DNA of 32,000 nt from a virus: the IMG/VR virus record IMGVR_UViG_3300045988_123843, positions 5,414-37,413 of that record; one strand, written 5' to 3'. Numbering within the stretch: the stretch's first letter is position 1; each line of letters opens with the position of its first letter. This document shows positions 7,301 to 31,059 of the stretch, piece by piece. Position numbers and translations under genes: made by a program. The notes below the pieces were generated by a model that saw nothing but the letters and a program-made list of their open reading frames with translations, was not told where the DNA came from and did not search any database.

Positions 7301-8140
7301 ATTCTTGCAAATTGTGGAAGTATCACAGAAGCAACCAATGCCATGAACAATTTAATTACATTGGCACAGGCAGTTCAAACTGCTGGTATTGAAGGACAAC
7401 AAATTCCTGCTGATGTAGCTGAAAAAGTTGCTAGTGGACAAATGTCTGTTGGAGATGCGGTAACTAAAATGATGCAAGACACAGATCCGAAAATGAAAGA
7501 AGCCGGTGAAAAGATGAAAAAACAAGCTGACAAATCAATCACTGGTATTGCGGATGCATTTGCGAATGACGGAACTACATCAGCTGCTGTTGGAAGTATG
7601 GGCGGAAAGATGGAAAAATCACTGCAACCTCATTTAGACGGCATGGTTACAAGCTCTGCTAAAGCTTATTCAGATATTAAATCAAATATTGATAAAGCTC
7701 AAAGTTATGCAGACAGTCATCCTATCACAGTTACACATACAACTATAAAAAAGACAAGAGTTGTTGAAGGTGATGACAATAAAAAATATTTCCCACAATC
7801 TTTGTTTAATGCGGATAAACCTGTTGTTGACACGGATATTATGCCAATGAGTGCAGATGCAATCGCTACATATTCTGATATCAGTCCGTATGCATCTGTT
7901 GCGAATGCTACAACAGCTATTATGGGTGGAACTACATCACGAAGCTATGGAAACGTTGGTAATATAAATTTGAGTGCAATCACAAATAGATTGGATCAAA
8001 TGATTAATGCAATTGGAAATTGTGATCTAACAATCAATCTACAACCTATGCAATTGGACGGAAATGTTGTTACAGATACTGTACAAGAAATTATATCAAT
8101 TCGAGATATGTTGAAATCATGGGGAAATGGAGGTTCATAG
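4367..8140 (+). CDS. Tail tape measure protein
   Basis: 1257 aa. TTG start 8 nt after AGGAGG. The TP901-type core motif is present (TGVTKTVNATPQQF...YAELAGQMGIPTD), with long helical and TM-like segments. Confidence 0.9.
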   Translation: MSGYSQVRGISVKIDGDTTGFQKAINKIKSETAGLDKTMSKLKSSMKFNEGDFQSFATYQNLLQDKIKSTTKQLEVYNKKLMNYPKTQKQWADAVSSATKSIDNYNHTFNSLNKEYADNNKQINAWKEAIANGTRSAEQGENAIQRLASRNVTLKEAMDDCNSGIAEQKKVLVDLGSTYEDSQRTYLGLKAGALGLKNELAGMSKSFISTNETLLRLYDTLGKVSSKSEQFANTVKPLSMLSFAGIAAATKTAIEFEDAWTGVTKTVNATPQQFEKINKGLKDLAQNTSSTYQDIAHYAELAGQMGIPTDAIVGFTKTITELGDTTNLVGEEAAQSIAKFSNVMVSQSKKTNTYYSRLGSTIVDLGNKFSTTEADIMNMATRLGVAGKMVGFNSNQVLGLSTALSSLGIEAAAGGSSVSKMLKTIDLSVSTGDKKLQKFAEVSGMTSQQFQKAWGEDAAGTFLKFVEGIGKSADVTKTLDELGIKEVRQAQSMGALAQSSDVLASALNVSKNAWNDNTAMANEAEKRYATLKSQLSQTWEAIKQAGNELGQAFTPTLTDLLKIVKKAANAFSNLDEGTQQTIAKMLLLTAAAYPTAKGVSKVAGATQSAVGFFTKAHPKLQKVADGFGIVAKEGEVASTSIVSLGKGFVLTHPAITAVTVALGAFAGAVVWADKKRKEAMETANKELAYKDTDYAVTLKVIDGYEKYAKSMSKTKTSMGEIVTQYMQNNKTASHLMKTIEDLNAKESLNATQKAMLAEAVMELNQLYPDLGVEIDENTGKLNFNKDAHYESIDAIKERITQIQEETKQEALASIVKKNATARLKAELKNAELTESIKSTTEAFKKLNAEYIAGHISMQDYMNQSSALKETVSTLCTDLADSYTKLHETQTQSILQSNYLETQSFEQMGTNMKIKLTDIAAQAAQAGIRIPIGIQEGITNGTANAVEAANYMASLMNFQQLVDQAGMIGGSIPMSVANSILANCGSITEATNAMNNLITLAQAVQTAGIEGQQIPADVAEKVASGQMSVGDAVTKMMQDTDPKMKEAGEKMKKQADKSITGIADAFANDGTTSAAVGSMGGKMEKSLQPHLDGMVTSSAKAYSDIKSNIDKAQSYADSHPITVTHTTIKKTRVVEGDDNKKYFPQSLFNADKPVVDTDIMPMSADAIATYSDISPYASVANATTAIMGGTTSRSYGNVGNINLSAITNRLDQMINAIGNCDLTINLQPMQLDGNVVTDTVQEIISIRDMLKSWGNGGS

Positions 8141-8141
8141 A

Positions 8142-8924
8142 ATGTATCATTTTAGATTTACACCTGAAAATAAACTGCGTTATACGCAAAATATTATGTA
8201 TTTATTAAAGGTAAGCGAACGTCCTGTTATTCCTATGGCGGAGGAAATTGTAGAAACATCTACACTTGGTGACGGTACTACATCGTATCGTCATACAGGT
8301 GTATATCAAGATCGCAAAATTCCTGTTAAATGCAACTTTGTTTTAAATAGCAAGAAAGAATATCTAGATCGTATCTATAAAATCCAACAATATTTCAATG
8401 GAAATAAAGGAATATTGGAGTTAACTAGTGATGATAGAGAACATTATTGGAAGGTAAAAAATGTAACGTTTGATATGGATTCAAGAGACTTTGGACGAGG
8501 AAGCGAATTTACAATCACATTTATTTGTGAACCTTACAGATACGTAAATAAGTATTCAAGGCCATACGATATTGTAAGTGGAAAAAAGGTAGAACTTGCG
8601 AATTATTATGAAACAGCATATCCAATTTATCGTTTATATAACACTTCCATGAATGCGAAAAACATTACGATCAATTGTAATGGAAATAATTTTACGATCA
8701 CAAATCCTTTTAATAGTACATCGGATATTTCGTATGTTGAAATCAATACGGAAAATTCTTATATGAAAACATACTATAAAAATGGAACGTATAAATATGA
8801 CACATTGAAAACAAGTGGATCTTTTGACGGACTTAAATTTAATTATGGTTCAAATAATGTATTGATCACAACAGATATTGGTGCTATTCGTGCAGAAATT
8901 ATACGTAATTATAGGGAGAAATAA
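8142..8924 (+). CDS. Distal tail protein (Dit)
   Basis: Lies immediately after the tape-measure gene and is about 260 aa. ATG 8142 is preferred over 8127 because GGAGG lies 8 nt upstream. Confidence 0.6.
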   Translation: MYHFRFTPENKLRYTQNIMYLLKVSERPVIPMAEEIVETSTLGDGTTSYRHTGVYQDRKIPVKCNFVLNSKKEYLDRIYKIQQYFNGNKGILELTSDDREHYWKVKNVTFDMDSRDFGRGSEFTITFICEPYRYVNKYSRPYDIVSGKKVELANYYETAYPIYRLYNTSMNAKNITINCNGNNFTITNPFNSTSDISYVEINTENSYMKTYYKNGTYKYDTLKTSGSFDGLKFNYGSNNVLITTDIGAIRAEIIRNYREK

Positions 8925-8926
8925 AG

Positions 8927-10516
8927 ATGATTCATTTATTCTTTTCTAGAAAAAAAACAACTTATGCACAAATGAAAGAACGTAATGGAGATGTGATTTT
9001 AAAACATTGTATTAGTGCTAAAGCAGTGTTTGAAAGAAATTCTATTTGGTGCGTAGAAATAGAATTCCCAAAAAGTGATTTGATGGGTATGGAAATCAGT
9101 GATGAATCCGTGTTTAAAGTTGACATAAATTTTGAAGAACCACAGTTATATAGAATTGTGTATCCAAAATACAACAAACAAAAAGATACATATACATGCT
9201 ATGCAACACATGTGTTCTTTGATTCTCAAAAAGAAGTGTTTGTGTTTGATGATCGTACTATGAGTGGTACGTGGCAAGATGCAGTGAATACCGCAAATGA
9301 TATTATCACAAATTCACGGCCAAATTATCCTTATAAAATTTATGGACATGGGGGATATGCAAATTATGCAAATGTTAATGCAGAGAATGAAAAAATCGTT
9401 TATTTCCAAAATGTTCAGAATAGTGGGTATTGTTTGGATGTTCCAAATGCCAGTGAAGATGCATCTATACAATTACAGATATATCAAAGAAACAGAACGT
9501 CTGCACAGACTTTCATGTTGAAAAAAGTAGGGTCAGACAAATATGGAGATATATATGGAATTTTATCTTTATGTTCATGTAGATGGCTTAAATTGGATTC
9601 AGGAAAAGTTGTGTTAGGTAGTCTATCTGAAAGCCCATCAGATGATTCTGAAAAATGGTGGTTCATTAATAATGGTTCTAACTATGAAATCGCACCGTAT
9701 GGAAACATATATTATGGTATTTGTTCTAGTTCAACAAGTATTGGAAATGGAAACAAAGTTGTTGTTGTAGATAGAGGTACTGCCGAAGTTGGAAATACAT
9801 GTAAATGGATGATTGAAGATGTGGATTCCACACAAACTGCATATTGGGTTCGATATAATCTGATTCAATGTTTGTTTGGAACAGAAGAAAATTCTATGAT
9901 GAATAGATGGCCTGAATGTGAAAATAACGGATTTGTTGCGATGTTTAACAATTATGATTGCTACTTTGGAAATCCAGATTATTATGCTTCCAATTTGAAG
10001 CCAAATGATTTCTTTATAAGTAATAAAGAAATGTCTGAATACACTCAGAAAAAATCAATGGAAAATGTAGTTACAGGAATCATACCTAAAGCGTACAATG
10101 GACGCATTTTACCAAATCACGAGATTATCAAGGCTAGTAATTGGGATACGAATGAAATTCACAGAATTGATGTGAAAGAATATTCCGATATCAAATTGAT
10201 TGCGGATGATTCACAAGCAAAGAAAACAACATTGGGCGTATTTACAAATGAAGCGAATTTTAGAAACTATCTTAGAATACAGGCAAAAAAATCTTTGGAG
10301 AAAGAACTGCAAGAACCAAAAACAGAAACTTCTATTAAATTTGAAGAACTATTTTCATCTAATGTGCCTGATGCACAGATGTTAAAGTTAAATGATTCGA
10401 TTTATGTAGAAACTGAGTTTGGTAAAAGGGAAAAATTTTATTTAAACAAACTGACATATAACTTGATCACAGCACTTCCCGAAGATCTGGATCTTGTATT
10501 AGAAAGTGAGGTATAA
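8927..10516 (+). CDS. Tail-associated protein (Tal / prophage-tail family) with inserted ricin-type beta-trefoil lectin domain
   Basis: 529 aa after Dit. The central segment (~9400-9830) shows three trefoil-like repeats ending in AQTFML, EKWWFI and CKWMIE. Confidence 0.55.
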   Translation: MIHLFFSRKKTTYAQMKERNGDVILKHCISAKAVFERNSIWCVEIEFPKSDLMGMEISDESVFKVDINFEEPQLYRIVYPKYNKQKDTYTCYATHVFFDSQKEVFVFDDRTMSGTWQDAVNTANDIITNSRPNYPYKIYGHGGYANYANVNAENEKIVYFQNVQNSGYCLDVPNASEDASIQLQIYQRNRTSAQTFMLKKVGSDKYGDIYGILSLCSCRWLKLDSGKVVLGSLSESPSDDSEKWWFINNGSNYEIAPYGNIYYGICSSSTSIGNGNKVVVVDRGTAEVGNTCKWMIEDVDSTQTAYWVRYNLIQCLFGTEENSMMNRWPECENNGFVAMFNNYDCYFGNPDYYASNLKPNDFFISNKEMSEYTQKKSMENVVTGIIPKAYNGRILPNHEIIKASNWDTNEIHRIDVKEYSDIKLIADDSQAKKTTLGVFTNEANFRNYLRIQAKKSLEKELQEPKTETSIKFEELFSSNVPDAQMLKLNDSIYVETEFGKREKFYLNKLTYNLITALPEDLDLVLESEV

Positions 10517-10517
10517 C

Positions 10518-11114
10518 ATGGCAATTGTATATAATGATTTAACCGTTAGTTTAACGAAGCCAAACGACAACTTGATTGTTGAAATGGTAAGAGCTGATTC
10601 GGGACGAGGATTAAGAATATTTGTCAGTGATGATGTGATTACTAGTAATAGCTCAAATGTTGATGAATCTTTGCATGCGATTTTATGGACTAAAAAGCCG
10701 AGTGGATTAATGGTTAGCATTGGTTCTACATCTGTATCAAGGTTTGAAAACTCAAATGCATACGAAATTGAATTTTCAGATACAGAAGCTTTTCAAAATA
10801 TCTTAGCAGAATTAGGAATTTGTGAATGCCAGGTGACATTAGAATCTAGTGGAACATTTGTCACAACTTTTAATTTTAAAATTAAGGTTGTTGATAATCT
10901 TGCAGCGCAGGAATCGTTAGAATCGACTGAAGAATACAAATCTATGATGGAATTGGTTGCGAAAGCAAATGCATATAAAAATGAATTAGAAAATTATGTG
11001 GCTCAATTTAAAAATCAACTGAAATTAACAGTTAATGTTAGATATGGAACTTCAGATCCTGTTGTACAAGATGGTGATAAAGTTGGAGATATCTATATCA
11101 AATATGAGGAGTAG
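10518..11114 (+). CDS. Baseplate / tail-fibre protein, BppU-N-like (tentative)
   Basis: ATG 10518 lies 6 nt after GTGAGG. There is an Ig-like N-terminal region followed by a coiled-coil. Position is downstream of Tal. Confidence 0.35.
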   Translation: MAIVYNDLTVSLTKPNDNLIVEMVRADSGRGLRIFVSDDVITSNSSNVDESLHAILWTKKPSGLMVSIGSTSVSRFENSNAYEIEFSDTEAFQNILAELGICECQVTLESSGTFVTTFNFKIKVVDNLAAQESLESTEEYKSMMELVAKANAYKNELENYVAQFKNQLKLTVNVRYGTSDPVVQDGDKVGDIYIKYEE

Positions 11115-11117
11115 TGT

Positions 11118-12164
11118 ATGACTGTTTTAGCGACATTACCATATAATCAGTATTTAATACTTACGTTTGAATCTTACAATGAGCGATATGAAGGTTCATA
11201 TCCGAATTTAAAATTTAAAGCGGATGTAAGGTTTAAATATACCGGAAACTTCAAAATCCAAGCAAACAATGTTGTTAGACTTGGAGGACTATCTAAAACT
11301 ATTTCAAGATGGGATTTAAATTATATCCAGGATTCAGGATGGTATTATCTAGGACAAATCAATGAACCTATGTATTGCAATAGACAACGTTCTTTTGAAT
11401 GGGATGCGAGTTGTCAGGGATTTCCTAATTTATCAGGAAAAGCAAGATTGACTACGCCTAAGATTGATTTGCCAACGTATGAAGCAAAGATATTGGATAT
11501 TAATAGTACCTCAATTTCTATTTATGGAAGGTTAAAAACGAATCCTTATAATTTGTATACTTTGCGTATTTATTCAAATGCAGCACAAAAATTTATTGTG
11601 GATAAATTAAATGGAACACATGTTGTAAGTGAATTGAAAGGTTCAACAAATTATGAATTTCATATTGAACCTTTTATGGCCGACTGTTCCGGATCACATT
11701 TACTTCAAACAGTATTAAAAGCAACGACACTAGAAGACTATAAAAAAATATCTGTTACGAGTGTAGATGTAACTATATCTCATATTGATGATAAGTATGA
11801 TAAAGCAGTGTGCGTTGCACATACAACGGATGATGCACATGTTACAAAGAGTCATTGGGATTATGATGGTATGGGAAGTGATTTAACTTCAGATAATCTT
11901 ACAAAGGAATTTAAAGTGCCGAATGGGAATGAGCGTAGAATGCTTGTTTATGTAACAGATACTTTGGGAAGAACGAGTGATTGGTTTTACTTTAATATTA
12001 TTGCGTCTGCATCTTTTAGAGAAGTATGGGTGTTTGATGGAAATAAATGGAAAAAAGGCAAATCACTTATCTTGAGTGGTGATGGAAAAACATTTGAAAA
12101 ATGTAGAATTTATTGTGATACAGGACTTGAATGGAAAGGTGCAAAAAGATACGGAGAGGATTAA
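11118..12164 (+). CDS. Tail fibre / baseplate structural protein (unknown family)
   Basis: 348 aa, beta-rich sequence, located in the tail-tip gene block. Confidence 0.35.
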   Translation: MTVLATLPYNQYLILTFESYNERYEGSYPNLKFKADVRFKYTGNFKIQANNVVRLGGLSKTISRWDLNYIQDSGWYYLGQINEPMYCNRQRSFEWDASCQGFPNLSGKARLTTPKIDLPTYEAKILDINSTSISIYGRLKTNPYNLYTLRIYSNAAQKFIVDKLNGTHVVSELKGSTNYEFHIEPFMADCSGSHLLQTVLKATTLEDYKKISVTSVDVTISHIDDKYDKAVCVAHTTDDAHVTKSHWDYDGMGSDLTSDNLTKEFKVPNGNERRMLVYVTDTLGRTSDWFYFNIIASASFREVWVFDGNKWKKGKSLILSGDGKTFEKCRIYCDTGLEWKGAKRYGED

Positions 12165-18391: not shown

Positions 18392-18505
18392 ATGAATGAT
18401 GAAGAAAAAGTAGTAGATTATGAGAATCTATCAGAAGAAGCAAAAGAAGAATTAAGCAATGGCAAGGAAGAAGGTGTAGATGAAGAATGTCGTATTCCGG
18501 ATTAG
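18392..18505 (+). CDS. Possible 37-aa highly acidic peptide between holin and endolysin
   Basis: GGAGGA lies 8 nt upstream of the ATG. The ORF overlaps the endolysin start by 19 nt. It is below the ORF-track cutoff. Confidence 0.25.
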   Translation: MNDEEKVVDYENLSEEAKEELSNGKEEGVDEECRIPD

Positions 18506-19563
18506 CAACATATTGTAACAGAACATCACAACATTATGATGGCCGTTTTGGATATAAGGTTTGTAAAATCACTCCACACTACATGGCTGCGGCATGGAGT
18601 GGTAAACAATGTGCAGATTATTTTGCACGAAATACTCGTCAAGCATCTTCCAATTATTGTATTGGAATTAATGGAGACATTGCATGCAGTGTTGATGAAG
18701 AAAATGCTGCATGGACAAGTTCAAATTGGTTGAATGATTCTCAATCAATTACAATTGAATGTGGAAACATTAATAACGCAACTGGAGAAATGACGCAAGC
18801 TACTTGGGATAGCTTGGTGAATCTATGTGTTGATATTTGTAAACGATATGGATTTAGATTGAACTATACAGGAAATTCTAGCGGATCATTGACTATGCAC
18901 AAAATGTTTGCGGCTACATCCTGCCCTGGAGCATGGTTGGAAGCACGTATGCCACAATTGGCTAATGAAGTAAATGCAAAGTTAGATGGAAAGGTTGAAA
19001 CACCAAAACCTACAACTCCAAGTGGAGAAAAATATTCAGTTAATTTACCTATCTGTACAAACACATTGAGTGTGAATTGCTACGGAACTTCTACAGTTAA
19101 AAAAGGTGATTGGTCAGGTGTCATTGGTAGAGTAATTAAAGGAACAAAATATCCATATCGTGTTGATCGCAATGGAGTAGCTATTGGATGGACAAATGAC
19201 GCGGGTATTGATACAGACCCCCATACACCAGTAGGCGCTACACAGTCTAGCGCAGAAGCTATCGACCAAATCTTGCATGAAGGAAGCTATGTTACATCTG
19301 TACATATGAAAATTGGCAATCAAGGATTGAAGAAAATTGGCGATGATTTATGTTGCTACTTGTCTAAATTAGGCGGTTGGTTTCCTATTCGTATGGTAGA
19401 CAAAGTACCTAATTCAGACGGATATAATGACAATGTATTGCATACCACAAATGCAGTAGTCTATGTATCTAGAATCAGAGTCGATGCAGTGAATGTTCAA
19501 AAGAATATTGTCAAGATTGGTGGCGTTTGGGTTGACCCAACACCATTAACAGAAATTGAATAA
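18487..19563 (+). CDS. Endolysin: N-acetylmuramoyl-L-alanine amidase (Amidase_2/PGRP) with C-terminal cell-wall-binding region
   Basis: ITPHYMAAAWSGKQCADYF...ASSNYCIGINGDIACSVDEENAAWTSSN...SITIECGN is a typical Amidase_2 core. The C-terminal ~190 aa are SH3-like. Confidence 0.85.
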   Translation: MSYSGLATYCNRTSQHYDGRFGYKVCKITPHYMAAAWSGKQCADYFARNTRQASSNYCIGINGDIACSVDEENAAWTSSNWLNDSQSITIECGNINNATGEMTQATWDSLVNLCVDICKRYGFRLNYTGNSSGSLTMHKMFAATSCPGAWLEARMPQLANEVNAKLDGKVETPKPTTPSGEKYSVNLPICTNTLSVNCYGTSTVKKGDWSGVIGRVIKGTKYPYRVDRNGVAIGWTNDAGIDTDPHTPVGATQSSAEAIDQILHEGSYVTSVHMKIGNQGLKKIGDDLCCYLSKLGGWFPIRMVDKVPNSDGYNDNVLHTTNAVVYVSRIRVDAVNVQKNIVKIGGVWVDPTPLTEIE

Positions 19564-19586
19564 AATAAAAAAATATAAAAAATTGT

Positions 19587-19615
19587 TTGACATAATATGG
19601 TTTATACTGTATTAT
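19587..19615 (+). promoter_or_regulatory. Near-consensus sigma-A promoter
   Basis: TTGACA (19587-19592), 17-nt spacer, TATTAT (19610-19615). Confidence 0.5.
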
Positions 19616-19621
19616 CTTTCT

Positions 19622-19785
19622 TGCGGAAGCAGTGAGGTACATTTTGGGGTACAAAACAACAAAGTGCTATCAAAACACGTAGATAATGATGTAAATAACA
19701 TCAAATATCAATAGATATGAGGTATTTTTATAATCCCCTCATCTGCTCCATTGAAATTTAAGCCTTTATTTAAAGGCTTTTTTAT
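19622..19785 (+). ncRNA. Candidate ~160-nt structured transcript or leader upstream of int
   Basis: It starts after the promoter above. A 12-bp end-closing helix forms between 19625-19637 and 19737-49. It ends in terminator AGCCTTTA-TT-TAAAGGCT plus T-run (19761-19785). No ORF is present. Confidence 0.3.
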
Positions 19786-19790
19786 TTACT

Positions 19791-19810
19791 TTGGGGTATA
19801 TTGGGGTATA
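19791..19810 (+). repeat. Tandem TTGGGGTATA x2 (further copies at 19644-19652 and, inverted, 19833-19840)
   Basis: Exact 10-bp tandem duplication. A related TTGGGGTAC lies inside the leader, and an inverted GGGGTATA lies in the spacer of the int promoter. Confidence 0.7.
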
Positions 19811-19826
19811 ATTTGATATTAAAATA

Positions 19827-19855
19827 TTGAATTATACCCCTTTTTTGCATATTAT
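19827..19855 (+). promoter_or_regulatory. Putative int promoter
   Basis: TTGAAT, 17-nt spacer, TATTAT. RBS AGAGGG precedes ATG 19878. Confidence 0.4.
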
Positions 19856-19877
19856 GGACATATAAGAGGGCACAAAA

Positions 19878-20975
19878 ATGGCAGTGGAATTAGATAAGAA
19901 GACAGGAAAATATATGTTTGCCGGAAAAATATATAAGGATGGTAAATGTATAAAGAGATATCGTAAGCGAGGTTTTGATTCTAAATGGGAAGCACAGAAA
20001 GCTGAGGTTGAATTCAGAAAAGATTTCTTTATGCTTCCATCAGATATGAATTTTGATAGACTATATAAAGCTTTTAAGGAGTACAACAAAAAGTACGTAA
20101 AAGAATCAACACTAAAATCAGATGAATATTTGTACATTGTTCTTTCTAAGGAAATGAAAGATATTGATTTTCTAGATAAAAGACAAATGCAAAACTTGAT
20201 CAACAAATTTGATGATAAATATTCAAAAGCATACGTATCAAGAATATATTTCTTTTTAAATAAGCTATATAAATTTGGTGTTACTTCTGAATACATCCAA
20301 TCAAATCCAATGACATATGTGAAACGTGATCTTAGATTGAATGAAAGAAAAGAAGAAATGACAATATGGCAGCAATATGATTTTGATTTATTTATTGAAG
20401 AAGTAGATGAACAAATGATGAAATGCTTTTATTCTGTTTTATTCTATATGGGATTACGAAAAGGTGAAGCCATGGCCCTACAATGGAAGGACATTGATTT
20501 TAGGAAGCAAACGATAGACATCAACAAAACATATAGATACAAAGAGAAAGACCCTAATAAATGGCTTACACCGCCAAAAACAAACAATAGCTATAGAACT
20601 ATCACAATGCCTAATACATTATCTAAAATGCTTCGAGAATGGTTTTTAGAATGCTCTAAATGGGATGATTTCACAAAAGATAAATTTGTATTTGGATACT
20701 ATAAACCAATATCACCTCAGACGGTACAAAGAAGATTTGATGATGCATACAATAAGGCAAAAGAAAAAGATGATGGATTGCCTAAAATAAGAATTCACGA
20801 TTTTAGACATTCACACGCATCATTTCTAATTAATAACATGGCAGGAGCTGGATTCTCAGATTTTGACATAGCCAAACGCTTAGGAGATACAGTTGAAACA
20901 TTGCATAATACATATGCACACTGGTTTGATACAAAAGATAAGAGTATTGTAGATATGATGAATAAGTTGTTGTAA
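19878..20975 (+). CDS. int: Tyrosine integrase (phage integrase family)
   Basis: 365 aa. The N-terminal arm-binding-like region is KTGKYMFAGKIYKDGKCIKRYRKRGFDSKWEAQKAE. Catalytic residues are seen in GLRKGEAMAL, HDFRHSHASF and TYAHW. Confidence 0.9.
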   Translation: MAVELDKKTGKYMFAGKIYKDGKCIKRYRKRGFDSKWEAQKAEVEFRKDFFMLPSDMNFDRLYKAFKEYNKKYVKESTLKSDEYLYIVLSKEMKDIDFLDKRQMQNLINKFDDKYSKAYVSRIYFFLNKLYKFGVTSEYIQSNPMTYVKRDLRLNERKEEMTIWQQYDFDLFIEEVDEQMMKCFYSVLFYMGLRKGEAMALQWKDIDFRKQTIDINKTYRYKEKDPNKWLTPPKTNNSYRTITMPNTLSKMLREWFLECSKWDDFTKDKFVFGYYKPISPQTVQRRFDDAYNKAKEKDDGLPKIRIHDFRHSHASFLINNMAGAGFSDFDIAKRLGDTVETLHNTYAHWFDTKDKSIVDMMNKLL

Positions 20976-21039
20976 ATGAGATATAAATAATGTTAATATA
21001 AATAGGTCTTAACTAGCACCCATTTATAAGGGAATATGT

Positions 21040-21398
21040 GGTGATTGAGACTTTTACAGATTTGATTCTGTTAAGCTATGATTAAACATTGTGTTCCAGA
21101 ATGCATAGTGTTTATAGCTTCCGTAGGGTTGTATGTGTTTACCTCAAGTTGGATAGGTCTGTTGACTGAAAGAAAACATTCTGATTGTGTATGTGAGGAT
21201 AGAAAGATGGCTATCGCGCACGAAAGTGTCAAGGGTAGGAATGTAAATTCTGATGAGATGTGGGAACTATCGCCCCATCATATACACAAAATGAACCTTG
21301 GTAGCAACATAGTTGTATACCATTGATTAATTTACCTTGGCAACGCAAAAGCGGATGTCACTGAATCGGTCCTTGTCATTTGACAAGGTCTTTTTTTG
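21040..21398 (+). ncRNA. Candidate large structured non-coding element (3' UTR of int / leader of downstream ORF)
   Basis: Visibly GC-enriched relative to its flanks. It shows nested helices, a GAAA tetraloop hairpin, repeated CCTTG/CAAGG segments and a strong terminator (CCTTGTCA/TGACAAGG, then T7 at 21391-21397). The only ORF (21078-21326) looks non-coding. Confidence 0.35.
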
Positions 21399-21427
21399 TT
21401 TATAAACTAAAATAGTTAGAGGTGTGT

Positions 21428-21601
21428 ATGAAGATAATCGATTATGTAATAAAAGGACTTAAAAATATAAACTTGTTTCCAAAGGCTGAGATTAAAATAG
21501 GATCGTTTTATGACGACTATATAGCATTATCTAATGATTGGAATATAGTTGGTGAAGATATTAAACAAGTTATGAATGAATATAAAATGAAAAACAGATA
21601 G
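21428..21601 (+). CDS. Hypothetical 57-aa protein
   Basis: AGAGGTG RBS, then ATG 21428 and TAG 21599-21601. Translation: MKIIDYVIKGLKNINLFPKAEIKIGSFYDDYIALSNDWNIVGEDIKQVMNEYKMKNR. Confidence 0.35.
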   Translation: MKIIDYVIKGLKNINLFPKAEIKIGSFYDDYIALSNDWNIVGEDIKQVMNEYKMKNR

Positions 21602-21632
21602 TGTATGCTGCTCAACACCACTATCTGTTTTT
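21594..21632 (+). terminator. Intrinsic terminator
   Basis: ACAGATAGTG (21594-21603) pairs with CACTATCTGT (21619-21628), followed by TTTTC. Confidence 0.6.
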
Positions 21633-21809
21633 CATTCTCTGCTAATCTTTTCTTGAGGAAATAGAAAAAAGCCTAAAATATTTATCATGTACACATGAAT
21701 AATAACATCACATTTTAAAAAGAGTAATGAAAAATGCAAAATATTAATAAATATTTACAAAGCAAAATAAGTTATTAATAATATAACCAAAAGTACATTA
21801 AAAATTCTA

Positions 21810-21826
21810 CCCCCCCCCGAAAAAAA
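21810..21826. repeat. Homopolymer tract C9 followed by G and A7
   Basis: CCCCCCCCC at 21810-21818, then GAAAAAAA, inside a ~390-bp AT-rich non-coding region. Confidence 0.9.
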
Positions 21827-21903
21827 TCCGAGACTGGTAATGTAATTTATAACCATTTGCACATTTTAGTATTATATTTGTACAATTTAATACTAAACAG
21901 ACA

Positions 21904-21931
21904 TTGACATATAGAATTTAAGACTTATTAT
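21904..21931 (+). promoter_or_regulatory. Near-consensus sigma-A promoter
   Basis: TTGACA (21904-21909), 16-nt spacer, TATTAT (21926-21931). Confidence 0.5.
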
Positions 21932-21993
21932 ATTAGAATAAGGAAAACGTTTTTCTTTTTATTCATAAAAAATGAATGGAAAGGGATGATCTT

Positions 21994-22113
21994 ATGGAAA
22001 GGGATTTATGGATAACGAAATTAATTATCCTAGCAGAAAAACTTAACGTGGATGATCTGCAAATTTTGTATAATCATGCACAAAGACTGCTGTTATCATC
22101 TAAAAATGAATAA
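21994..22113 (+). CDS. Hypothetical 39-aa protein
   Basis: AAGGGA RBS lies 8 nt upstream. Translation: MERDLWITKLIILAEKLNVDDLQILYNHAQRLLLSSKNE. Confidence 0.3.
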   Translation: MERDLWITKLIILAEKLNVDDLQILYNHAQRLLLSSKNE

Positions 22114-22162
22114 CACTAATACCTATAGGTATTTACGCGCAAATTTAAAAGAAGAATACTAA

Positions 22163-22273
22163 ATGGAAGAACAAAAGAGAATCGCAATTGCAGAAAGATT
22201 TGAATGCTATGAAGGCTAAATGAAGCAAGAAGAAATTTGGTCTGATGAAGTAGTTGGCAAAGAAGAAATATAA
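22163..22273 (+). pseudogene. Remnant of the C-terminal part of an AbrB/MazE-type antitoxin gene, with an in-frame TAA
   Basis: The translation ...AERFECYEG*MKQEEIWSDEVVGKEEI* resembles the conserved (E/D)IxWxxPVGKE(x)W tail of MazE/PemI-like antitoxins. The SpoVT/AbrB N-domain is absent, there is an internal stop at 22217-22219, and no toxin gene follows. Confidence 0.35.
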
Positions 22274-22296
22274 GCTAGGGAATTTACCCTAGCTTA
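22271..22296. terminator. Bidirectional hairpin terminator between convergent genes
   Basis: TAAGCTAGGG-AATTTA-CCCTAGCTTA (10-bp stem) with A/T runs on both sides. Confidence 0.6.
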
Positions 22297-22301
22297 TATT
22301 T

Positions 22302-23315
22302 TTAATATCCGTTTTGTGTTACACCATATTCTGCTTGTTCTTGTGTATAACCTTCATAAATCAATTGATCTATTAATCCTTGTCGAGAGAATGACGATAT
22401 GTCTAAATATTCTTTTGCTGATTTAGCGGCCTGCTCGTTCCAGTTTGTGTTGCAGTTATCAGCTGCATAAGTGGCTTCCTCTGTTGAGTAACCTTCATAT
22501 TCTAGTTGATGAATTAATCCTGAATAAGAGAATGCAGAAATATTTAAATATTCTCTTGCAGTTCTTAGTGCATTTTTTTCTCCTGTTGTTGGAGATGGAG
22601 TTGATGCATTTGAATTTGTACTTGGAGTAGTTGTAGTTGGTGAAGAAGATGAATTGTTTGAAGAAGAGTTTGAAGTGGTTGAATTTGTATTGCTTTGTTC
22701 TTCTTCCTCTTTTTTATCGTTAACAACTACATTATCAACAATACTATCAAATTCATTTTCGTAATCGTATTTCAATCCTTCGTTAGGCTGAATTAATATC
22801 ATACTGATAAATGATGTTTTGTTGTTATTTGATAAAAGATATATAAAGCATTTTGACGGTGTGCTTGTATCGTTGTTACTGTCATCATCATTTAACGTCA
22901 AATTTCCTGTTACTTCTGAATAATATACAGTACGACCGGCACTATTTAATGTTTTTATTCCATAACTTGTATCGGTATCCTCCATGAAATCATCTCTGTC
23001 TTTTAAAGCATCCATAAAGGCATCCGCTGCTTCACTATTCAATTCCATATCCATTAAAGTGATGGTTAAAATAGGATATCCTTCATCCGCCCTGAATGAT
23101 AGCCCTTCTTTTGTACTTACGACATTTTGAAAATACTCAGGTAAGTATATAGTAAAATCACCAATTTCAAAAGAATTTGCTTTTAAATCATCTGATTCTC
23201 TGTCGGTGATTTCTTCTGTTTGGTTATCAGCTTTAACTCTTTCTTTGTAGCTTGTACATCCTGTGCACATAGATAGTGCAAGCGTAGCAATCCCAATAGT
23301 TTTGAATAATTTCAT
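22302..23315 (-). CDS. ltp: Ltp-family surface lipoprotein (superinfection-exclusion type) with extra N-terminal domain
   Basis: Signal peptide plus lipobox-like LALSMCTGC and an S/T/N-rich linker. Two C-terminal Ltp repeats are present (NALRTAREYLNISAFSYSGLIHQLEYEGYSTEEATYAADN and AAKSAKEYLDISSFSRQGLIDQLIYEGYTQEQAEYGV). The position between int and cI is the same as in phage TP-J34. Confidence 0.7.
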   Translation of the reverse strand: MKLFKTIGIATLALSMCTGCTSYKERVKADNQTEEITDRESDDLKANSFEIGDFTIYLPEYFQNVVSTKEGLSFRADEGYPILTITLMDMELNSEAADAFMDALKDRDDFMEDTDTSYGIKTLNSAGRTVYYSEVTGNLTLNDDDSNNDTSTPSKCFIYLLSNNNKTSFISMILIQPNEGLKYDYENEFDSIVDNVVVNDKKEEEEQSNTNSTTSNSSSNNSSSSPTTTTPSTNSNASTPSPTTGEKNALRTAREYLNISAFSYSGLIHQLEYEGYSTEEATYAADNCNTNWNEQAAKSAKEYLDISSFSRQGLIDQLIYEGYTQEQAEYGVTQNGY

Positions 23316-23402: not shown

Positions 23403-23813
23403 CTATTTGTTGTTCTTTTCTTTTTCTCTTTTAGCTAATTCTCTATTTACAATTGACCACAAATAATCTGCAACTTGTTGCTTTATATCCGGCGGTGCTT
23501 CAAGGTATCCTCGCACAAGCCATTTATCTTCTGGCTTTAATCCATAATCTTCGATTAGCTGATCTATTTTTGAATCAGGTATAGAAATGAACATATCGTC
23601 TCCAATACCTTCAGTTAACCATACATAGTCAACGTTGAATTCTCGGCATATAGAATTGATGGTTTGGCTTGATGGATTGGTAGTTCCTTTTTCAATGTTA
23701 TTGATTGAACCTTTTGAGATACCTATTTGTTTACCGAATTTTTCCATACTCAAATTAAAATGTTTACGTATTTTATATATTCTCGACCCTATATGTTCTT
23801 CCACGATTTTCAC
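23403..23813 (-). CDS. XRE-family cI-like repressor
   Basis: HTH motif LSMEKFGKQIGISKGSINNIEKGTTNPSSQTINSICREFNV. It is divergent from the early operon. The likely true start is the GTG at 23804, 6 nt after AAGAGGTG. Confidence 0.8.
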   Translation of the reverse strand: MKIVEEHIGSRIYKIRKHFNLSMEKFGKQIGISKGSINNIEKGTTNPSSQTINSICREFNVDYVWLTEGIGDDMFISIPDSKIDQLIEDYGLKPEDKWLVRGYLEAPPDIKQQVADYLWSIVNRELAKREKEKNNK

Positions 23814-24663: not shown

Positions 24664-25566
24664 ATGACTAAGGATGAGTTACAAACAAAAATTAACGGGT
24701 TCATAAAAGAAGAAACAGCGGATGAGAAAAGTAAGAATACCATTCGTAAATACAAACATGTTGCTACTTTGTTTGTTAACTCATTGCCTGATGGTGAAAT
24801 ACAAAAGTCCGATATAGTTGGTGTTAAAGATAAACTGCTGCATGATTATAAAATCAGTACAGTAAACAACTATATTGTGATCATTAATAAATTCATTAAA
24901 TATGCAGAAATCGTAGATTCAGATGATGATTTCAATTTCTTGAAACTTAAAAAATATTATTCAAAGAATTTATTGAAGAACGTAAGAGTCCAGAAAGATG
25001 ATTCTTTGGATGATATTTTAGAGCCTAATGAATTTCAAAGACTATTGAAAAAAGCCAAGGAAATCAACCGTATAGACCTATACGAGGTTATGAAGGTATT
25101 TGGATATACGGGAATTAGGCTGAGCGAATTACAGTTCTTTACTGTGGAAGCAGTAACGGATGACAATGTGTATGTTATGAACAAAGGAAAAGGAAGAGGA
25201 ATCATTCTACGTTCAGACTTGCGTAGAGAACTTCTTAAATACTGCAAGGACAACAAAATTGAAGAAGGATATATATTTACTTCTTCTGATAAGAAAAGCC
25301 CTGTAAACGCTCGTGTGTTGTCTAGAGATTTAAAGATGATTGCTGGTAAATGCAGAGGGATTAAGCTTGGCAAAGTACATCCACATGCATTTAGGCATTT
25401 GTTTGCCATTCAGTATTTGATGCAGAATGGTGAAAATGCGATTGCAGAACTAGCTGACATTTTGGGCCATTCTAGTTTAGAAACTACAAGAATCTATGTT
25501 CGTACAACAAGGAAAATGAAAAAGCAGAATCTTGAATCATTGAGTTATGCGAAAAGGAGTAGGTAA
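24664..25566 (+). CDS. Second tyrosine recombinase (XerC/XerD-like)
   Basis: 300 aa. Catalytic residues are seen in GIRLSELQ, HPHAFRHLFA and LGHSSLETTRIYV. The N-terminal SAM-like domain is present. Confidence 0.85.
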   Translation: MTKDELQTKINGFIKEETADEKSKNTIRKYKHVATLFVNSLPDGEIQKSDIVGVKDKLLHDYKISTVNNYIVIINKFIKYAEIVDSDDDFNFLKLKKYYSKNLLKNVRVQKDDSLDDILEPNEFQRLLKKAKEINRIDLYEVMKVFGYTGIRLSELQFFTVEAVTDDNVYVMNKGKGRGIILRSDLRRELLKYCKDNKIEEGYIFTSSDKKSPVNARVLSRDLKMIAGKCRGIKLGKVHPHAFRHLFAIQYLMQNGENAIAELADILGHSSLETTRIYVRTTRKMKKQNLESLSYAKRSR

Positions 25567-27670: not shown

Positions 27671-28110
27671 TTGAATTAAAAGTGATTGAAAAATTCATGG
27701 AAGAAAATGGTTTAGAACCATATGATGCATTTGATGTGGATGGTGAGCTAAAAAAATACAATCCATGTTATTTTACTGAAGAATTAGAATTACGATCAAT
27801 GTATCTTGATTTTAAAGGTGTTGATAGTCCACTTTGTACAATTTGGTTACATAGACTATTAACCGGGAAAGATCATGTAAAACATAAAAGAACAGAAGAA
27901 AATAATTCGGAAGTTGTTGCTGAAGAAAACAGAAATGTTGTTTGTAAGGTATCTGTTAAAGGATATGTTATGTCGGATGAAGAATTAGATTATTTAAGAA
28001 AAGCGTGTCATTTAGCAAGCAATGTTGCCTTTGAAAGCGACGAAAAAAATATTTATAGAAAATTAAATGAATATTTAATAACAGGTGAAAGATCCTATGA
28101 CAGAAAATGA
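27667..28110 (+). CDS. Hypothetical protein
   Basis: 147 aa, ATGA overlap with the upstream gene. Confidence 0.4.
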   Translation: MIELKVIEKFMEENGLEPYDAFDVDGELKKYNPCYFTEELELRSMYLDFKGVDSPLCTIWLHRLLTGKDHVKHKRTEENNSEVVAEENRNVVCKVSVKGYVMSDEELDYLRKACHLASNVAFESDEKNIYRKLNEYLITGERSYDRK

Positions 28111-28882
28111 TTTTATTCTATTCGACAGAATAGAAGTAATAAAAAAGACGATTGAGAAGTATGGGGAAGAAAACTTCTACATATCTTTCTCAGGAGGAAA
28201 AGACAGTACAGTTTTACATCATTTAATTGATGAAGCAATTCCTGGAAATCAAATACCAAGGGTGTTTATGAATACAGGGATTGAATATAACGATATACGG
28301 AGGTTCGTTGAGGAATTGACAGAAAATGATTTTAGATTTGTCATTGTAAATTCCAAAGTGAACATTCCACAAATGTTAAAAGAAAAAGGCTATCCTTTTA
28401 AATCAAAATTTCACGCAGAACAGGTGCGGAGATTTCAATTAAAAGGCGATTTTGAAAAAACAAACCGAAATTATTATGAAGGTGTAAAGGCAAGTGGAGT
28501 AGAGGCATCCGCCAAATTTAAATGCCCAGGTATACTGAAATACCAATTTTCAAAAGATTTCAATATTCCTTTAAGTCCAAATTGTTGTAATGAGTTGAAG
28601 AAAAAACCATTACATAAATGGGAAGAACAAAATAAAAGGAAAATTGCAATTATTGGTACTCGACAAGCTGAGGGCGGAATTAGATCAATGCACGAAGGAT
28701 GCATATTAACTAAAAACAATGAAGTTGTTAAATTCAAACCTTTAAATCCTTTGAATGATGATTGGATGGAATGGTACGTAAAAGAAAGAAACGTTAAATT
28801 ATGCAAGCTTTACTATCCACCTTACAACTTCAAGAGAACAGGATGTAAAGGATGCCCATTTGCGATACATCTACAGGATTAG
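28097..28882 (+). CDS. PAPS-reductase / PP-loop ATPase family protein, ending at an in-frame TAG
   Basis: PP-loop FSGGKDST and C-terminal CKGCPF. ATG 28097 lies 8 nt after AGGTGA. TAG is at 28880-28882. Confidence 0.75.
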   Translation: MTENDFILFDRIEVIKKTIEKYGEENFYISFSGGKDSTVLHHLIDEAIPGNQIPRVFMNTGIEYNDIRRFVEELTENDFRFVIVNSKVNIPQMLKEKGYPFKSKFHAEQVRRFQLKGDFEKTNRNYYEGVKASGVEASAKFKCPGILKYQFSKDFNIPLSPNCCNELKKKPLHKWEEQNKRKIAIIGTRQAEGGIRSMHEGCILTKNNEVVKFKPLNPLNDDWMEWYVKERNVKLCKLYYPPYNFKRTGCKGCPFAIHLQD

Positions 28883-29021: not shown

Positions 29022-29468
29022 ATGGACAAATATTTGTTTAAATCGAATATATTCGCTCGATTATCAGAAATCGTAGAAGCTGATTCAGAAAAAGAAGTTA
29101 TGGATAAGATTAGAAATCGAAAATCTTTTGAAATTAAGCAAGAAGTTTTGAAAGTTTATCCATCATCAATTGAGATTACAAAAATCAAAGAAAAAAAGGA
29201 GAAAAACAACATGGAATTAAAAGAAACAGTAGAGTTAATGAACTCTGAAGATTACAAAGAAAGATTCATTGCAGAATATCACCAAGTAAAAATCAGATAT
29301 GAGAAATTGAAGAATTTCTGCAACAAAATTGAAGTTGAAGAAATGCTAGGCAAAGAAGTAACAAAACATGATTGCCCACTTGAACTATTAAGAGAGCAAC
29401 AAAAATACATGGGATTGTATTTATCCGTTCTTGAAAAAAGAGCATTAATTGAAAATGTTGAATTATAA
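29022..29468 (+). CDS. Hypothetical phage protein
   Basis: 148 aa with AAGGAG RBS. The C-terminal half (SEDYKERFIAEYHQVKIRYEKL...CPLELLREQQKYMGLYLSVLEKRALIENVEL) resembles a widespread small phage protein family of unknown function. Confidence 0.45.
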   Translation: MDKYLFKSNIFARLSEIVEADSEKEVMDKIRNRKSFEIKQEVLKVYPSSIEITKIKEKKEKNNMELKETVELMNSEDYKERFIAEYHQVKIRYEKLKNFCNKIEVEEMLGKEVTKHDCPLELLREQQKYMGLYLSVLEKRALIENVEL

Positions 29469-30413: not shown

Positions 30414-30426
30414 AAGGAGAATGAAA

Positions 30427-31059
30427 ATGAATGAAAAATTAAGGCCATGCCCCTTTTGTGGAGGGGGAGCAAGACTACAACTAACTGATGATGAAGGAAA
30501 CTTTAAAGATGAATCCTATTTAGAAAATCCATACAGTGGAGTTGGATATGTAGTTATGCACGATATAAGTCATTCAACAAGCTGTTGTCCAATTGCTACT
30601 GATTCCGATAGTTCGCAAGGCAGCTACATTTACGCATCAAAGGAAGCAGCAATAAACGCTTGGAACGGAAGAACAGATGATGATTTAACCGATTATATAT
30701 CTAAAATTATGAATATCTTCTATGGATCATTCATAAATCACAATAAAGAGCTAATTCTGATTCCAAAAACAAATCTATATTTCTATTTAGGTGATGTTAA
30801 TACAGTTGACGAAGTGAAGTACAAATTACTTGAATGGTGCAGCAGAAGTAGTTTTAAAGCAATGCCATACAGATATGCCAAGAAGAATAAAAAGTATCAA
30901 GACAATGTTTTAAGAAAAGTGAATGAATGTCTTGATGCGGAATTTACACGAGAACAAATGGAATTGATTTACACAAAATTAGGAAACTGTATAAATCATG
31001 AATTGACAATGAAATTTGTTAGTAGTGGTTATGATATGAAACAGTTAGAGGAAAAATAA
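30427..31059 (+). CDS. Lar-family (restriction-alleviation-like) zinc-ribbon domain fused to an unknown C-terminal domain
   Basis: LRPCPFCGGGARL...CCPIA...SKEAAINAWNGR follows the Lar family pattern. ATG 30427 lies 7 nt after AGGAG. The C-terminal ~120 aa are unrecognised. Confidence 0.5.
   Translation: MNEKLRPCPFCGGGARLQLTDDEGNFKDESYLENPYSGVGYVVMHDISHSTSCCPIATDSDSSQGSYIYASKEAAINAWNGRTDDDLTDYISKIMNIFYGSFINHNKELILIPKTNLYFYLGDVNTVDEVKYKLLEWCSRSSFKAMPYRYAKKNKKYQDNVLRKVNECLDAEFTREQMELIYTKLGNCINHELTMKFVSSGYDMKQLEEK

Follow-up and report, generated by a model that had tools for sequence, protein, structure and literature searches.

Introduction

Drum and skipping-rope are conserved RNAs of unknown function with a terminator downstream, and Weinberg et al. 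2017 (PMC5737381) treat both as improbable riboswitches or ribozymes and describe a "compelling association" with nearby proteins. Since 2017 they have counted as bacterial RNAs that, judging by their conservation, have a sophisticated function. Type III toxin-antitoxin systems (ToxIN, CptIN, TenpIN) are built in the order promoter, RNA, terminator and RNase gene, the terminator keeping the antitoxin RNA in excess (PMC5086642), and phages escape ToxIN by RNA-only antitoxin mimics such as pseudo-ToxI of phage PhiTE (PMC3475682). PBECR domains are widespread predicted phage RNases, and PBECR proteins are predicted to act as RNases of conflict systems (PMC5512222). Here we analyse an element at positions 21040-21398 of a stretch of 32,000 nucleotides (nt) from the virus record IMGVR_UViG_3300045988_123843 (positions 5,414 to 37,413 of that record; the whole stretch is called the window hereafter), which is located downstream of the phage integrase gene int, and we compare about 280 loci overall. 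We show the element to be a protein-less cassette of the two catalogued RNAs drum and skipping-rope, in which the protein partner has been lost and the RNA structure has been retained.

Results

Drum and skipping-rope form a tandem downstream of int

We scanned the whole window against Rfam 15 and obtained only two matches above the curated thresholds, both lying inside 21040-21398 and both covering their models from end to end, i.e. drum (RF02958) followed by skipping-rope (RF02924) (Table 1). A sequence-only reading of this DNA had described the segment not as a protein gene but as a structured non-coding RNA that has a terminator of its own, which the Rfam matches and a terminator scan bear out. 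The same reading had found no match to a known RNA class; the Rfam/Infernal scan that it proposed supplies two families, each at full length and above threshold. A permissive Rfam scan of 19500-22300 gave nothing credible beyond these two RNAs, with 21287-21400 corresponding to no known RNA, and a search for tRNA and tmRNA genes in the window returned none.

The drum copy (21073-21184) retains the conserved unpaired blocks GGGUUGU, ACCUCAA, GAUAGG and GAAAGAAAAC. Among ten variants from the phage group, 98.3% of cells in the drum RNA are paired, compared to 24-42% in slid controls, and three pairs are changed on both sides. For skipping-rope in ten variants 99.6% of cells are paired, compared to 24-48% in slid controls, and pairs 5-95, 34-39 and 53-62 are changed on both sides, so that the covariation check on homologues suggested by the sequence-only reading yields compensatory changes at three pairs in each RNA. 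Skipping-rope carries a lineage-specific 20-nt insertion forming an extra GUAA-tetraloop hairpin (21238-21251), which contains one of its three compensatory pairs; this GNRA-hairpin insertion is also present in related chromosomal copies. The closing helix P1 of skipping-rope shows further covariation compared to the chromosomal copies L240 and L244.

The sequence strings quoted in the sequence-only reading are all found where it had placed them. The 10-bp helix that it traced between 21187-21196 and 21278-21287, together with the three hairpins enclosed, corresponds to P1 and the three hairpins of the skipping-rope model and shows compensatory changes in relatives. A further helix, pairing CAGAATG (21097-21103) with CATTCTG (21177-21183), does not survive the comparison: the segments are complementary here, but the central pair is broken in 8 of 10 relatives without compensation, and 21097-21103 is a conserved loop in the Rfam drum fold.

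The two RNAs are separated by 3 nt and share a single intrinsic terminator (21371-21398), whose hairpin and T-run (21371-21388 for the hairpin) had been recognised by eye and were recovered by the terminator scan, which reported four sites compared to 0.8 expected. A transcript of both RNAs, some 330-350 nt long, likely ends at this terminator, which is common only to the relatives L012 and L026, the remaining ones using different terminators. At canonical drum loci the terminator lies within about 10 nt of the motif, whereas in the window drum is followed by skipping-rope and the sole terminator lies 187 nt downstream of drum.

The short hairpin directly preceding drum (21057-21072) is probably the counterpart of a longer 5' hairpin, called P0 here, that precedes drum in chromosomal loci. 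P0 (e.g. GACAGGCAACGGCGUGUGUCUGUC) is located outside the Rfam drum model, which seems to be built without this 5' helix, and is found upstream of drum in dozens of loci with varying stems. Stems such as GACAGGCAACGGCGTGTGTCTGTC and GGATAGCGACGAGATCAGCTATC were observed between the promoter and drum model position 1 in nearly all chromosomal loci (L137, L140, L162, L172, L179, L183, L188 and L245-L279). In the window the 5' hairpin has only five base pairs, and its stem is invariant in the phage group, so that it offers no covariation test. Two promoter-like sequences lie nearby: a weak TTAACT-17-GAATAT at 21010-21038 is a candidate by eye only, and TTTACA-18-TATGAT at 21053-21082 was not taken as a promoter because its start would fall inside drum P1.

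The claim that the segment is rich in G+C was borne out: 21040-21398 has 38.7% G+C, compared to 29.8% and 27.3% in its flanks and 32.7% window-wide, which places it at the 95th percentile among 359-nt windows; it is enriched but not unique, the lysin gene being equally rich. Its only open reading frame (ORF; 82 amino acids (aa), 21078-21326), whose composition had already been called implausible, has no Pfam or PHROG match and is spurious because it spans both RNAs and terminates in the integrase-fragment scar described below.

Drum and skipping-rope are associated with PBECR genes in other genomes

A strict drum pattern identified 71 loci in GTDB genomes, mostly of Lachnospiraceae and Oscillospiraceae, 64 of them with enough downstream sequence. 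At 48 of these 64 loci a PBECR4 coding sequence (PF18813, E down to 4e-40) follows about 50-60 nt after drum, on the same strand and behind a terminator. Searching from the protein side, we examined six independent clusters of PBECR4, comprising 35 loci located between housekeeping genes that are unrelated to one another; drum lies 50-65 nt upstream of PBECR4 in six of six, and all six show a near-consensus TTGACA-17-TATAAT promoter, a 5' hairpin and a terminator. The canonical drum locus accordingly reads promoter, 5' hairpin, drum, terminator, ribosome-binding site and PBECR4. About a third of the PBECR4 genes adjoining drum are degraded. Drum is present without PBECR4 at 16 of the 64 genome loci and in four of five drum copies in unrelated viral contigs, whereas none of the six PBECR4 clusters that we checked had PBECR4 lacking drum. 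Such a one-way dependence, drum being often alone and PBECR4 never alone in these clusters, is what one would expect if PBECR4 were a toxin and drum its antitoxin. Most members of both RNA families have no integrase in their vicinity and are preceded by a sigma-70 promoter of their own.

Relatives of skipping-rope were collected with nhmmer profiles and a helix-aware pattern script followed by Rfam confirmation; IUPAC skipping-rope patterns were too unspecific in large collections, a stricter pattern mostly returned the same phage group, and a search for related loci with a PBECR2/3 alignment gave nothing outside this group. In L207 skipping-rope directly follows a solo PBECR3 gene, and in L209 it directly follows the gene for a PBECR2-containing protein (with a weak MuF C-terminal match). 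In L183 and L196 it stands 3' of PBECR4, the order being drum, terminator, PBECR4 and skipping-rope, and in L240 and L244 it stands 5' of a chromosomal PBECR3 gene, the order being promoter, small hairpin, skipping-rope, terminator, ribosome-binding site and gene. The skipping-rope copies of L240 and L244 align with those of the window and of sister phage L028 at a mean column identity of 92% (four-sequence alignment).

Arrays of the RNAs alone are also found in other phages. The unrelated phage contig L195 contains a protein-less array of skipping-rope, skipping-rope and drum, and the 104-kb contig L059 (IMG/VR 3300021400_001310) has two drum RNAs and one skipping-rope RNA at 6500-11900 among tRNA genes (Gln, Phe, Tyr, Thr, Leu), one drum being only 5 nt from tRNA-Tyr. 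The arrangement in L059 suggests co-transcription and tRNA-type processing of these RNAs with the tRNA array.

The partner proteins of drum and skipping-rope match only the Pfam families PBECR2, PBECR3 and PBECR4, not the ToxN, CptN or TenpN families, and PADLOC and NCBIfam contain no model matching PBECR4. Invariant residues of PBECR4 include H43, H48, R25, K26, R151 and K173, and the AlphaFold model of the PBECR4 protein P0011 is confident (pLDDT 88, pTM 0.83).

Sister phages carry alternative cassettes at the same site

We compared the site in 39 IMG/VR contigs encoding an integrase 97-99% identical to that of the window and counted the architectures with the window added. In nine phages drum and skipping-rope are followed by a terminator hairpin, a PBECR3 gene of 127 aa (PF18812, E 6e-14) and a 59-aa ORF; seven, including the window, carry both RNAs and no PBECR gene; four carry skipping-rope alone and two carry drum followed by PBECR4, the remaining contigs having neither RNA. 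The stretch between int and the gene of the Ltp-type lipoprotein varies from 763 to 2159 bp across the sister contigs. Neither the window nor the other 13 kb or so of a sister prophage gave a match in tblastn with PBECR2, PBECR3 and PBECR4 queries, and Pfam scans of 30 window ORFs revealed no PBECR domain; in the window, drum has no PBECR4 gene beside it and skipping-rope has no PBECR2, PBECR3 or PBECR4 gene beside it. A BLASTN search with 20976-21420 against 50,697 phage records found nothing.

The orphan tandem exists in more than one form. The near-identical phages L028, L034 and L035, as well as L177, a contig of a metagenome-assembled genome (MAG), keep drum and skipping-rope and lack the part corresponding to 21290-21590 of the window with its hairpins, terminator and ORF. 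In L028 and L034 the RNAs run directly into a different terminator, which equals 21594-21633 of the window, and in L028 a DUF3800 gene stands between int and drum.

The segment following skipping-rope in the window is a probable diverged remnant of the integrase 3' end (Table 1), the match to L033 continuing there into a clear second int 3' fragment (L033 5814-5908), and it is best read as a recombination scar at the place where relatives have the terminator and PBECR3. The hairpin at 21300-21321 pointed out in the sequence-only reading is indeed present, but it sits in this remnant and is probably part of the scar. In the alignment with L008 the terminator and PBECR3 segment is replaced by 21291-21400 of the window, comprising the scar and a different terminator, and the two sequences match again from the ribosome-binding site of the 59-aa ORF onwards. 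The int 3' fragments in the window and in L033 suggest cassette exchange through recombination at int 3' ends.

Further observations concern the recombination of this region. Two direct repeats containing ACCTTGG are located in the integrase scar region at 21290-21301 and 21329-21340. An 11-nt microhomology (GATTGTGTATG / GATAGTGTATG) is shared by the drum/skipping-rope junction (21183-21193) and the distal terminator (21597-21607), and the junction in L007 (…ACAGATAGTGTACGTGAGG) resembles a recombination product of these two sites. Across L001-L039 the region from int to Ltp/cI is a hypervariable hot spot with cassettes encoding DUF3800 (L028), DUF6978 with DUF1828/DUF1829 (L007), a DUF2335 membrane protein (L004), PBECR3 or PBECR4, and the Ltp variants at this hot spot are only 39-67% identical.

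Genome context and position of attP

The window represents a temperate siphophage genome in an excised, permuted form with the gene order prohead protease, capsid and tail genes, holin and endolysin (18487-19563), integrase, the RNAs, the 59-aa ORF, Ltp, the cI-like repressor and replication/early genes (Table 1). Ltp and the cI-like repressor mark the lysogeny/accessory region that holds the RNA cassette. Since there is no terminator between the int stop codon and the RNAs, read-through transcription is possible.

The homology between L004 and the window begins at 19734, within the tRNA 3' end, and in integrated relatives the tRNA gene abuts int, while int and the RNAs stay contiguous. The host tRNA directly upstream of int and this start of homology place attP upstream of int, so that the RNAs are neither the attP homology block considered in the sequence-only reading nor a sib-like element. 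Just upstream of int, 19803-19840 contains an inverted repeat with a 17-bp stem (GGGGTATAATTTGATATT...AATATTGAATTATACCCC) and direct TTGGGGTATA repeats, which are likely integrase/arm sites.

The host is probably a member of the Erysipelotrichaceae. The MAG carrying the prophage is labelled Solobacterium (Erysipelotrichaceae), and L244, which has the chromosomal skipping-rope-PBECR3 locus, is a Holdemanella-like member of the Erysipelotrichaceae by MnmE search, i.e. of the same family as the Solobacterium MAG and not necessarily the same host.

Table 1. Features of the window discussed in the text, with positions in the 32,000-nt stretch.
Feature	Position	Strand	Evidence or remark
attP core TCCCCTCATCTGCTCCA, identical to host tRNA 3' end (17 nt)	19734..19750	+	tRNA genes upstream of int in L004, L006, L028
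Phage tyrosine integrase (int)	19878..20975	+	Pfam Phage_integrase, PHROG 1
Short 5' hairpin (ACAGA-UUUGAU-UCUGU) directly before drum	21057..21072	+	sequence
Drum RNA (Rfam RF02958), full length, helices P1-P4	21073..21184	+	cmscan 82.2 bits (gathering score 43), E 3e-14, model positions 1-112 of 112
Skipping-rope RNA (Rfam RF02924), full length, P1 closing a junction of three hairpins	21188..21286	+	cmscan 53.7 bits (gathering score 36.7), E 2.6e-10, model positions 1-80 of 80
Probable diverged remnant of integrase 3' end, reads MNLGSNIVVYH* (int ...KRLGDTVETLH...)	21291..21326	+	34-nt match to L033 5814-5847
Intrinsic (Rho-independent) terminator CCUUGUCA-UUUG-ACAAGG plus U-run	21371..21398	+	terminator scan and fold
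59-aa ORF	21422..21601	+	downstream of PBECR3 in sister phages; missing in L028/L034
Ltp-type superinfection-exclusion lipoprotein	22302..23315	-	Pfam Lipoprotein_Ltp, PHROG superinfection exclusion
cI-like repressor	23403..23813	-	Pfam HTH_19

Elsewhere in the window, the early genes include one for a second tyrosine recombinase of 300 aa (24664-25566, plus strand, Phage_integrase E 3.5e-19), which is conserved in the sister prophage L230. Early-region genes at 28085-28882, 29022-29468 and 30421-31059 encode a PAPS-reductase-like protein, a member of the crAss001_48/'Sequestin' family and a Lar-like restriction-alleviation protein, all of which likely serve counter-defence or DNA modification; ArdA is encoded outside the window (L228 3831-4331). 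The AT-rich spacer before a 45-aa ORF contains a possible slipped-strand site at 21811-21827, where a run of ten C is followed by one G and a run of seven A.

Discussion

Our comparison links drum and skipping-rope to PBECR genes in a regular and testable promoter-RNA-terminator-nuclease gene architecture, and the window phage and its sisters provide a natural allelic series at one locus, i.e. RNAs with PBECR3, drum with PBECR4, RNAs only and neither. The reading we rank first, to which we give somewhat less than an even chance, is that both RNAs act in trans in the manner of antitoxins (immunity RNAs) and would bind and neutralise their cognate PBECR nucleases, the tandem in the window being a retained antidote cassette. 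It is ranked first because of the promoter-RNA-terminator-RNase layout, the one-way dependence of PBECR4 on drum and the precedent of RNA-only mimics in phages. According to this model, the terminator between RNA and gene would keep the RNA in excess over the toxin, as in type III pairs. The orphan tandem would be kept because it neutralises PBECR3/PBECR4-type nucleases made by others, candidate sources being host chromosomal modules, co-resident or competing prophages and nucleases injected by superinfecting phages, and it might act as an anti-toxin decoy comparable to pseudo-ToxI of phage PhiTE.

Several points weigh against a role as antidotes. No strong promoter is evident just upstream of drum in the window. 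Drum and skipping-rope are each a single complex fold and not the tandem short repeats of type III antitoxins, and the position of skipping-rope, before PBECR genes in some loci and after them in others, is less regular than that of the RNA in type III loci. Both the toxicity of PBECR proteins and its inhibition by drum and skipping-rope are what we infer from these arrangements, and PBECR proteins are assigned as putative BECR-fold RNases from Pfam and profile matches. Foldseek of the PBECR4 model against the PDB gave no significant neighbour, so that the nuclease fold of PBECR4 is not independently confirmed; a PDB sequence search for PBECR4 returned no solved relative, and a literature search on PBECR4 function found no paper. 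Finally, the orphan state could be the product of a recent neutral deletion.

More broadly, drum and skipping-rope may be the RNA halves of a large RNA-protein toxin-antitoxin (or immunity) class, in which complex, non-repetitive RNAs would neutralise PBECR RNases; phages like the present one would carry protein-less antidote cassettes, in this case with two different antidotes on one transcript, against nucleases of hosts or rival phages. We put this generalisation forward tentatively and consider it possible rather than probable. If true, both RNA-based toxin neutralisation and phage counter-defence would gain a new family; otherwise, the locus is an ordinary instance of two catalogued motifs.

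We regard it as unlikely that the RNAs are instead cofactors of PBECR nucleases, acting as RNA subunit, guide, sensor or activator, with orphan copies arming or retargeting nucleases in trans, e.g. virion-delivered PBECR domains. The same tight co-location of RNA and PBECR gene applies to such a role, which would also accommodate skipping-rope on either side of the gene and the many invariant unpaired nucleotides, taken by Weinberg et al. (PMC5737381) as a sign of "sophisticated" biochemistry. However, the order promoter-RNA-terminator-gene overproduces RNA relative to protein, as known for antitoxin RNAs, and RNA-only cassettes in phages without PBECR are easier explained as antidotes.

It is improbable, in our view, that the tandem is a functionless remnant left by a recent deletion of PBECR3, with the RNAs decaying neutrally. 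The integrase-fragment scar and foreign terminator replacing the terminator and PBECR3, the location in a recombination hot spot with its variable int-to-Ltp spacer, and the degraded state of about a third of the PBECR4 genes beside drum would all be in line with decay. Both RNAs, however, are far above the Rfam thresholds and keep all conserved blocks, the orphans fall into two or more sub-lineages, among them that of the window and that of L028/L034, between which the changes are compensatory and not disruptive, and protein-less arrays recur in unrelated phages.

Still less probable is a cis-acting leader, i.e. a riboswitch or attenuator sensing a signal and controlling terminator read-through into a downstream gene, which the sequence-only reading had proposed for the small ORF at 21422/21428. 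Canonical loci do place the RNAs between promoter and terminator upstream of a gene, and in the window a terminator and an ORF follow the RNAs. Yet the downstream ORF and the terminator are not conserved with the RNAs: the 59-aa ORF is missing after the RNAs in L028 and L034 and cut off from them by PBECR3 in nine phages, so that the RNAs are no leader for it. In addition, the RNAs are also located after genes, in tRNA arrays and in RNA-only arrays, the terminators begin after 4-8 unrelated nucleotides with no conserved alternative pairing by inspection, and both RNAs were judged improbable riboswitches by Weinberg et al. (PMC5737381). The repeated CCTTG (three copies) and CAAGG (two copies), from which mutually exclusive folds had been proposed, are present, and three of the seven CCTTG of the window fall within 21040-21398, but the competing pairings are not conserved, CAAGG at 21230 being AAAGG or CAAGA in relatives and the terminators being different.

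A structured 3' untranslated region regulating int in the manner of lambda sib retroregulation, also raised in the sequence-only reading, is very improbable: the RNAs do come next after int, share its strand and are not separated from it by a terminator, but attP is located upstream of int, so that integration leaves the region coupled to int, the DUF3800 gene intervenes in L028, roughly one in two sister phages encoding this integrase has no RNAs, and both RNA families mostly occur with no integrase nearby.

Comparison with known systems

Compared to other members of RF02958, the drum copy of the window is full-length with four helices and the single-stranded blocks and belongs to the same Bacillota/phage setting, with PBECR4 present at the same site in two sister phages; it differs in having neither its own terminator nor PBECR4, in running into skipping-rope and in a 5' hairpin much shorter than the chromosomal ones. 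The skipping-rope copy likewise agrees with RF02924 in its full length, in P1 and three hairpins, in the GAGG and GAGAUG blocks and in a terminator downstream, and differs by the 20-nt insertion and by the missing PBECR3 partner of nine sister phages.

Canonical drum-PBECR4 and skipping-rope-PBECR3 loci (and L008) share with type III systems a single promoter, an RNA, a Rho-independent terminator and a predicted endoribonuclease gene, and RNA-only copies are found in phages in both cases. In contrast, the window itself has no protein gene, type III antitoxins are tandem repeats of 34-45 nt whereas each RNA here is one complex fold, no tandem repeats were detected in 20950-21650, and the partners are PBECR proteins with a predicted BECR fold and not ToxN, CptN or TenpN. 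The lack of tandem repeats and of any relationship between the proteins places the drum/skipping-rope cassette outside the type III families.

The DUF3800-associated RNA motifs of Weinberg et al. 2017 are likewise structured, have terminators and go together with a single protein predicted to be nuclease-like, and DUF3800 is encoded just upstream of the RNAs in L028; the window differs from them in having no DUF3800 gene and in its RNA folds. With lambda sib and riboswitch attenuators the element has in common a hairpin-rich RNA after int that ends in a terminator, and it differs by attP lying on the other side of int and by the lack of a conserved alternative pairing or regulated gene. The element is not a new RNA class; it adds a further example to two catalogued families, which are unusual here in being fused and in having no protein gene.

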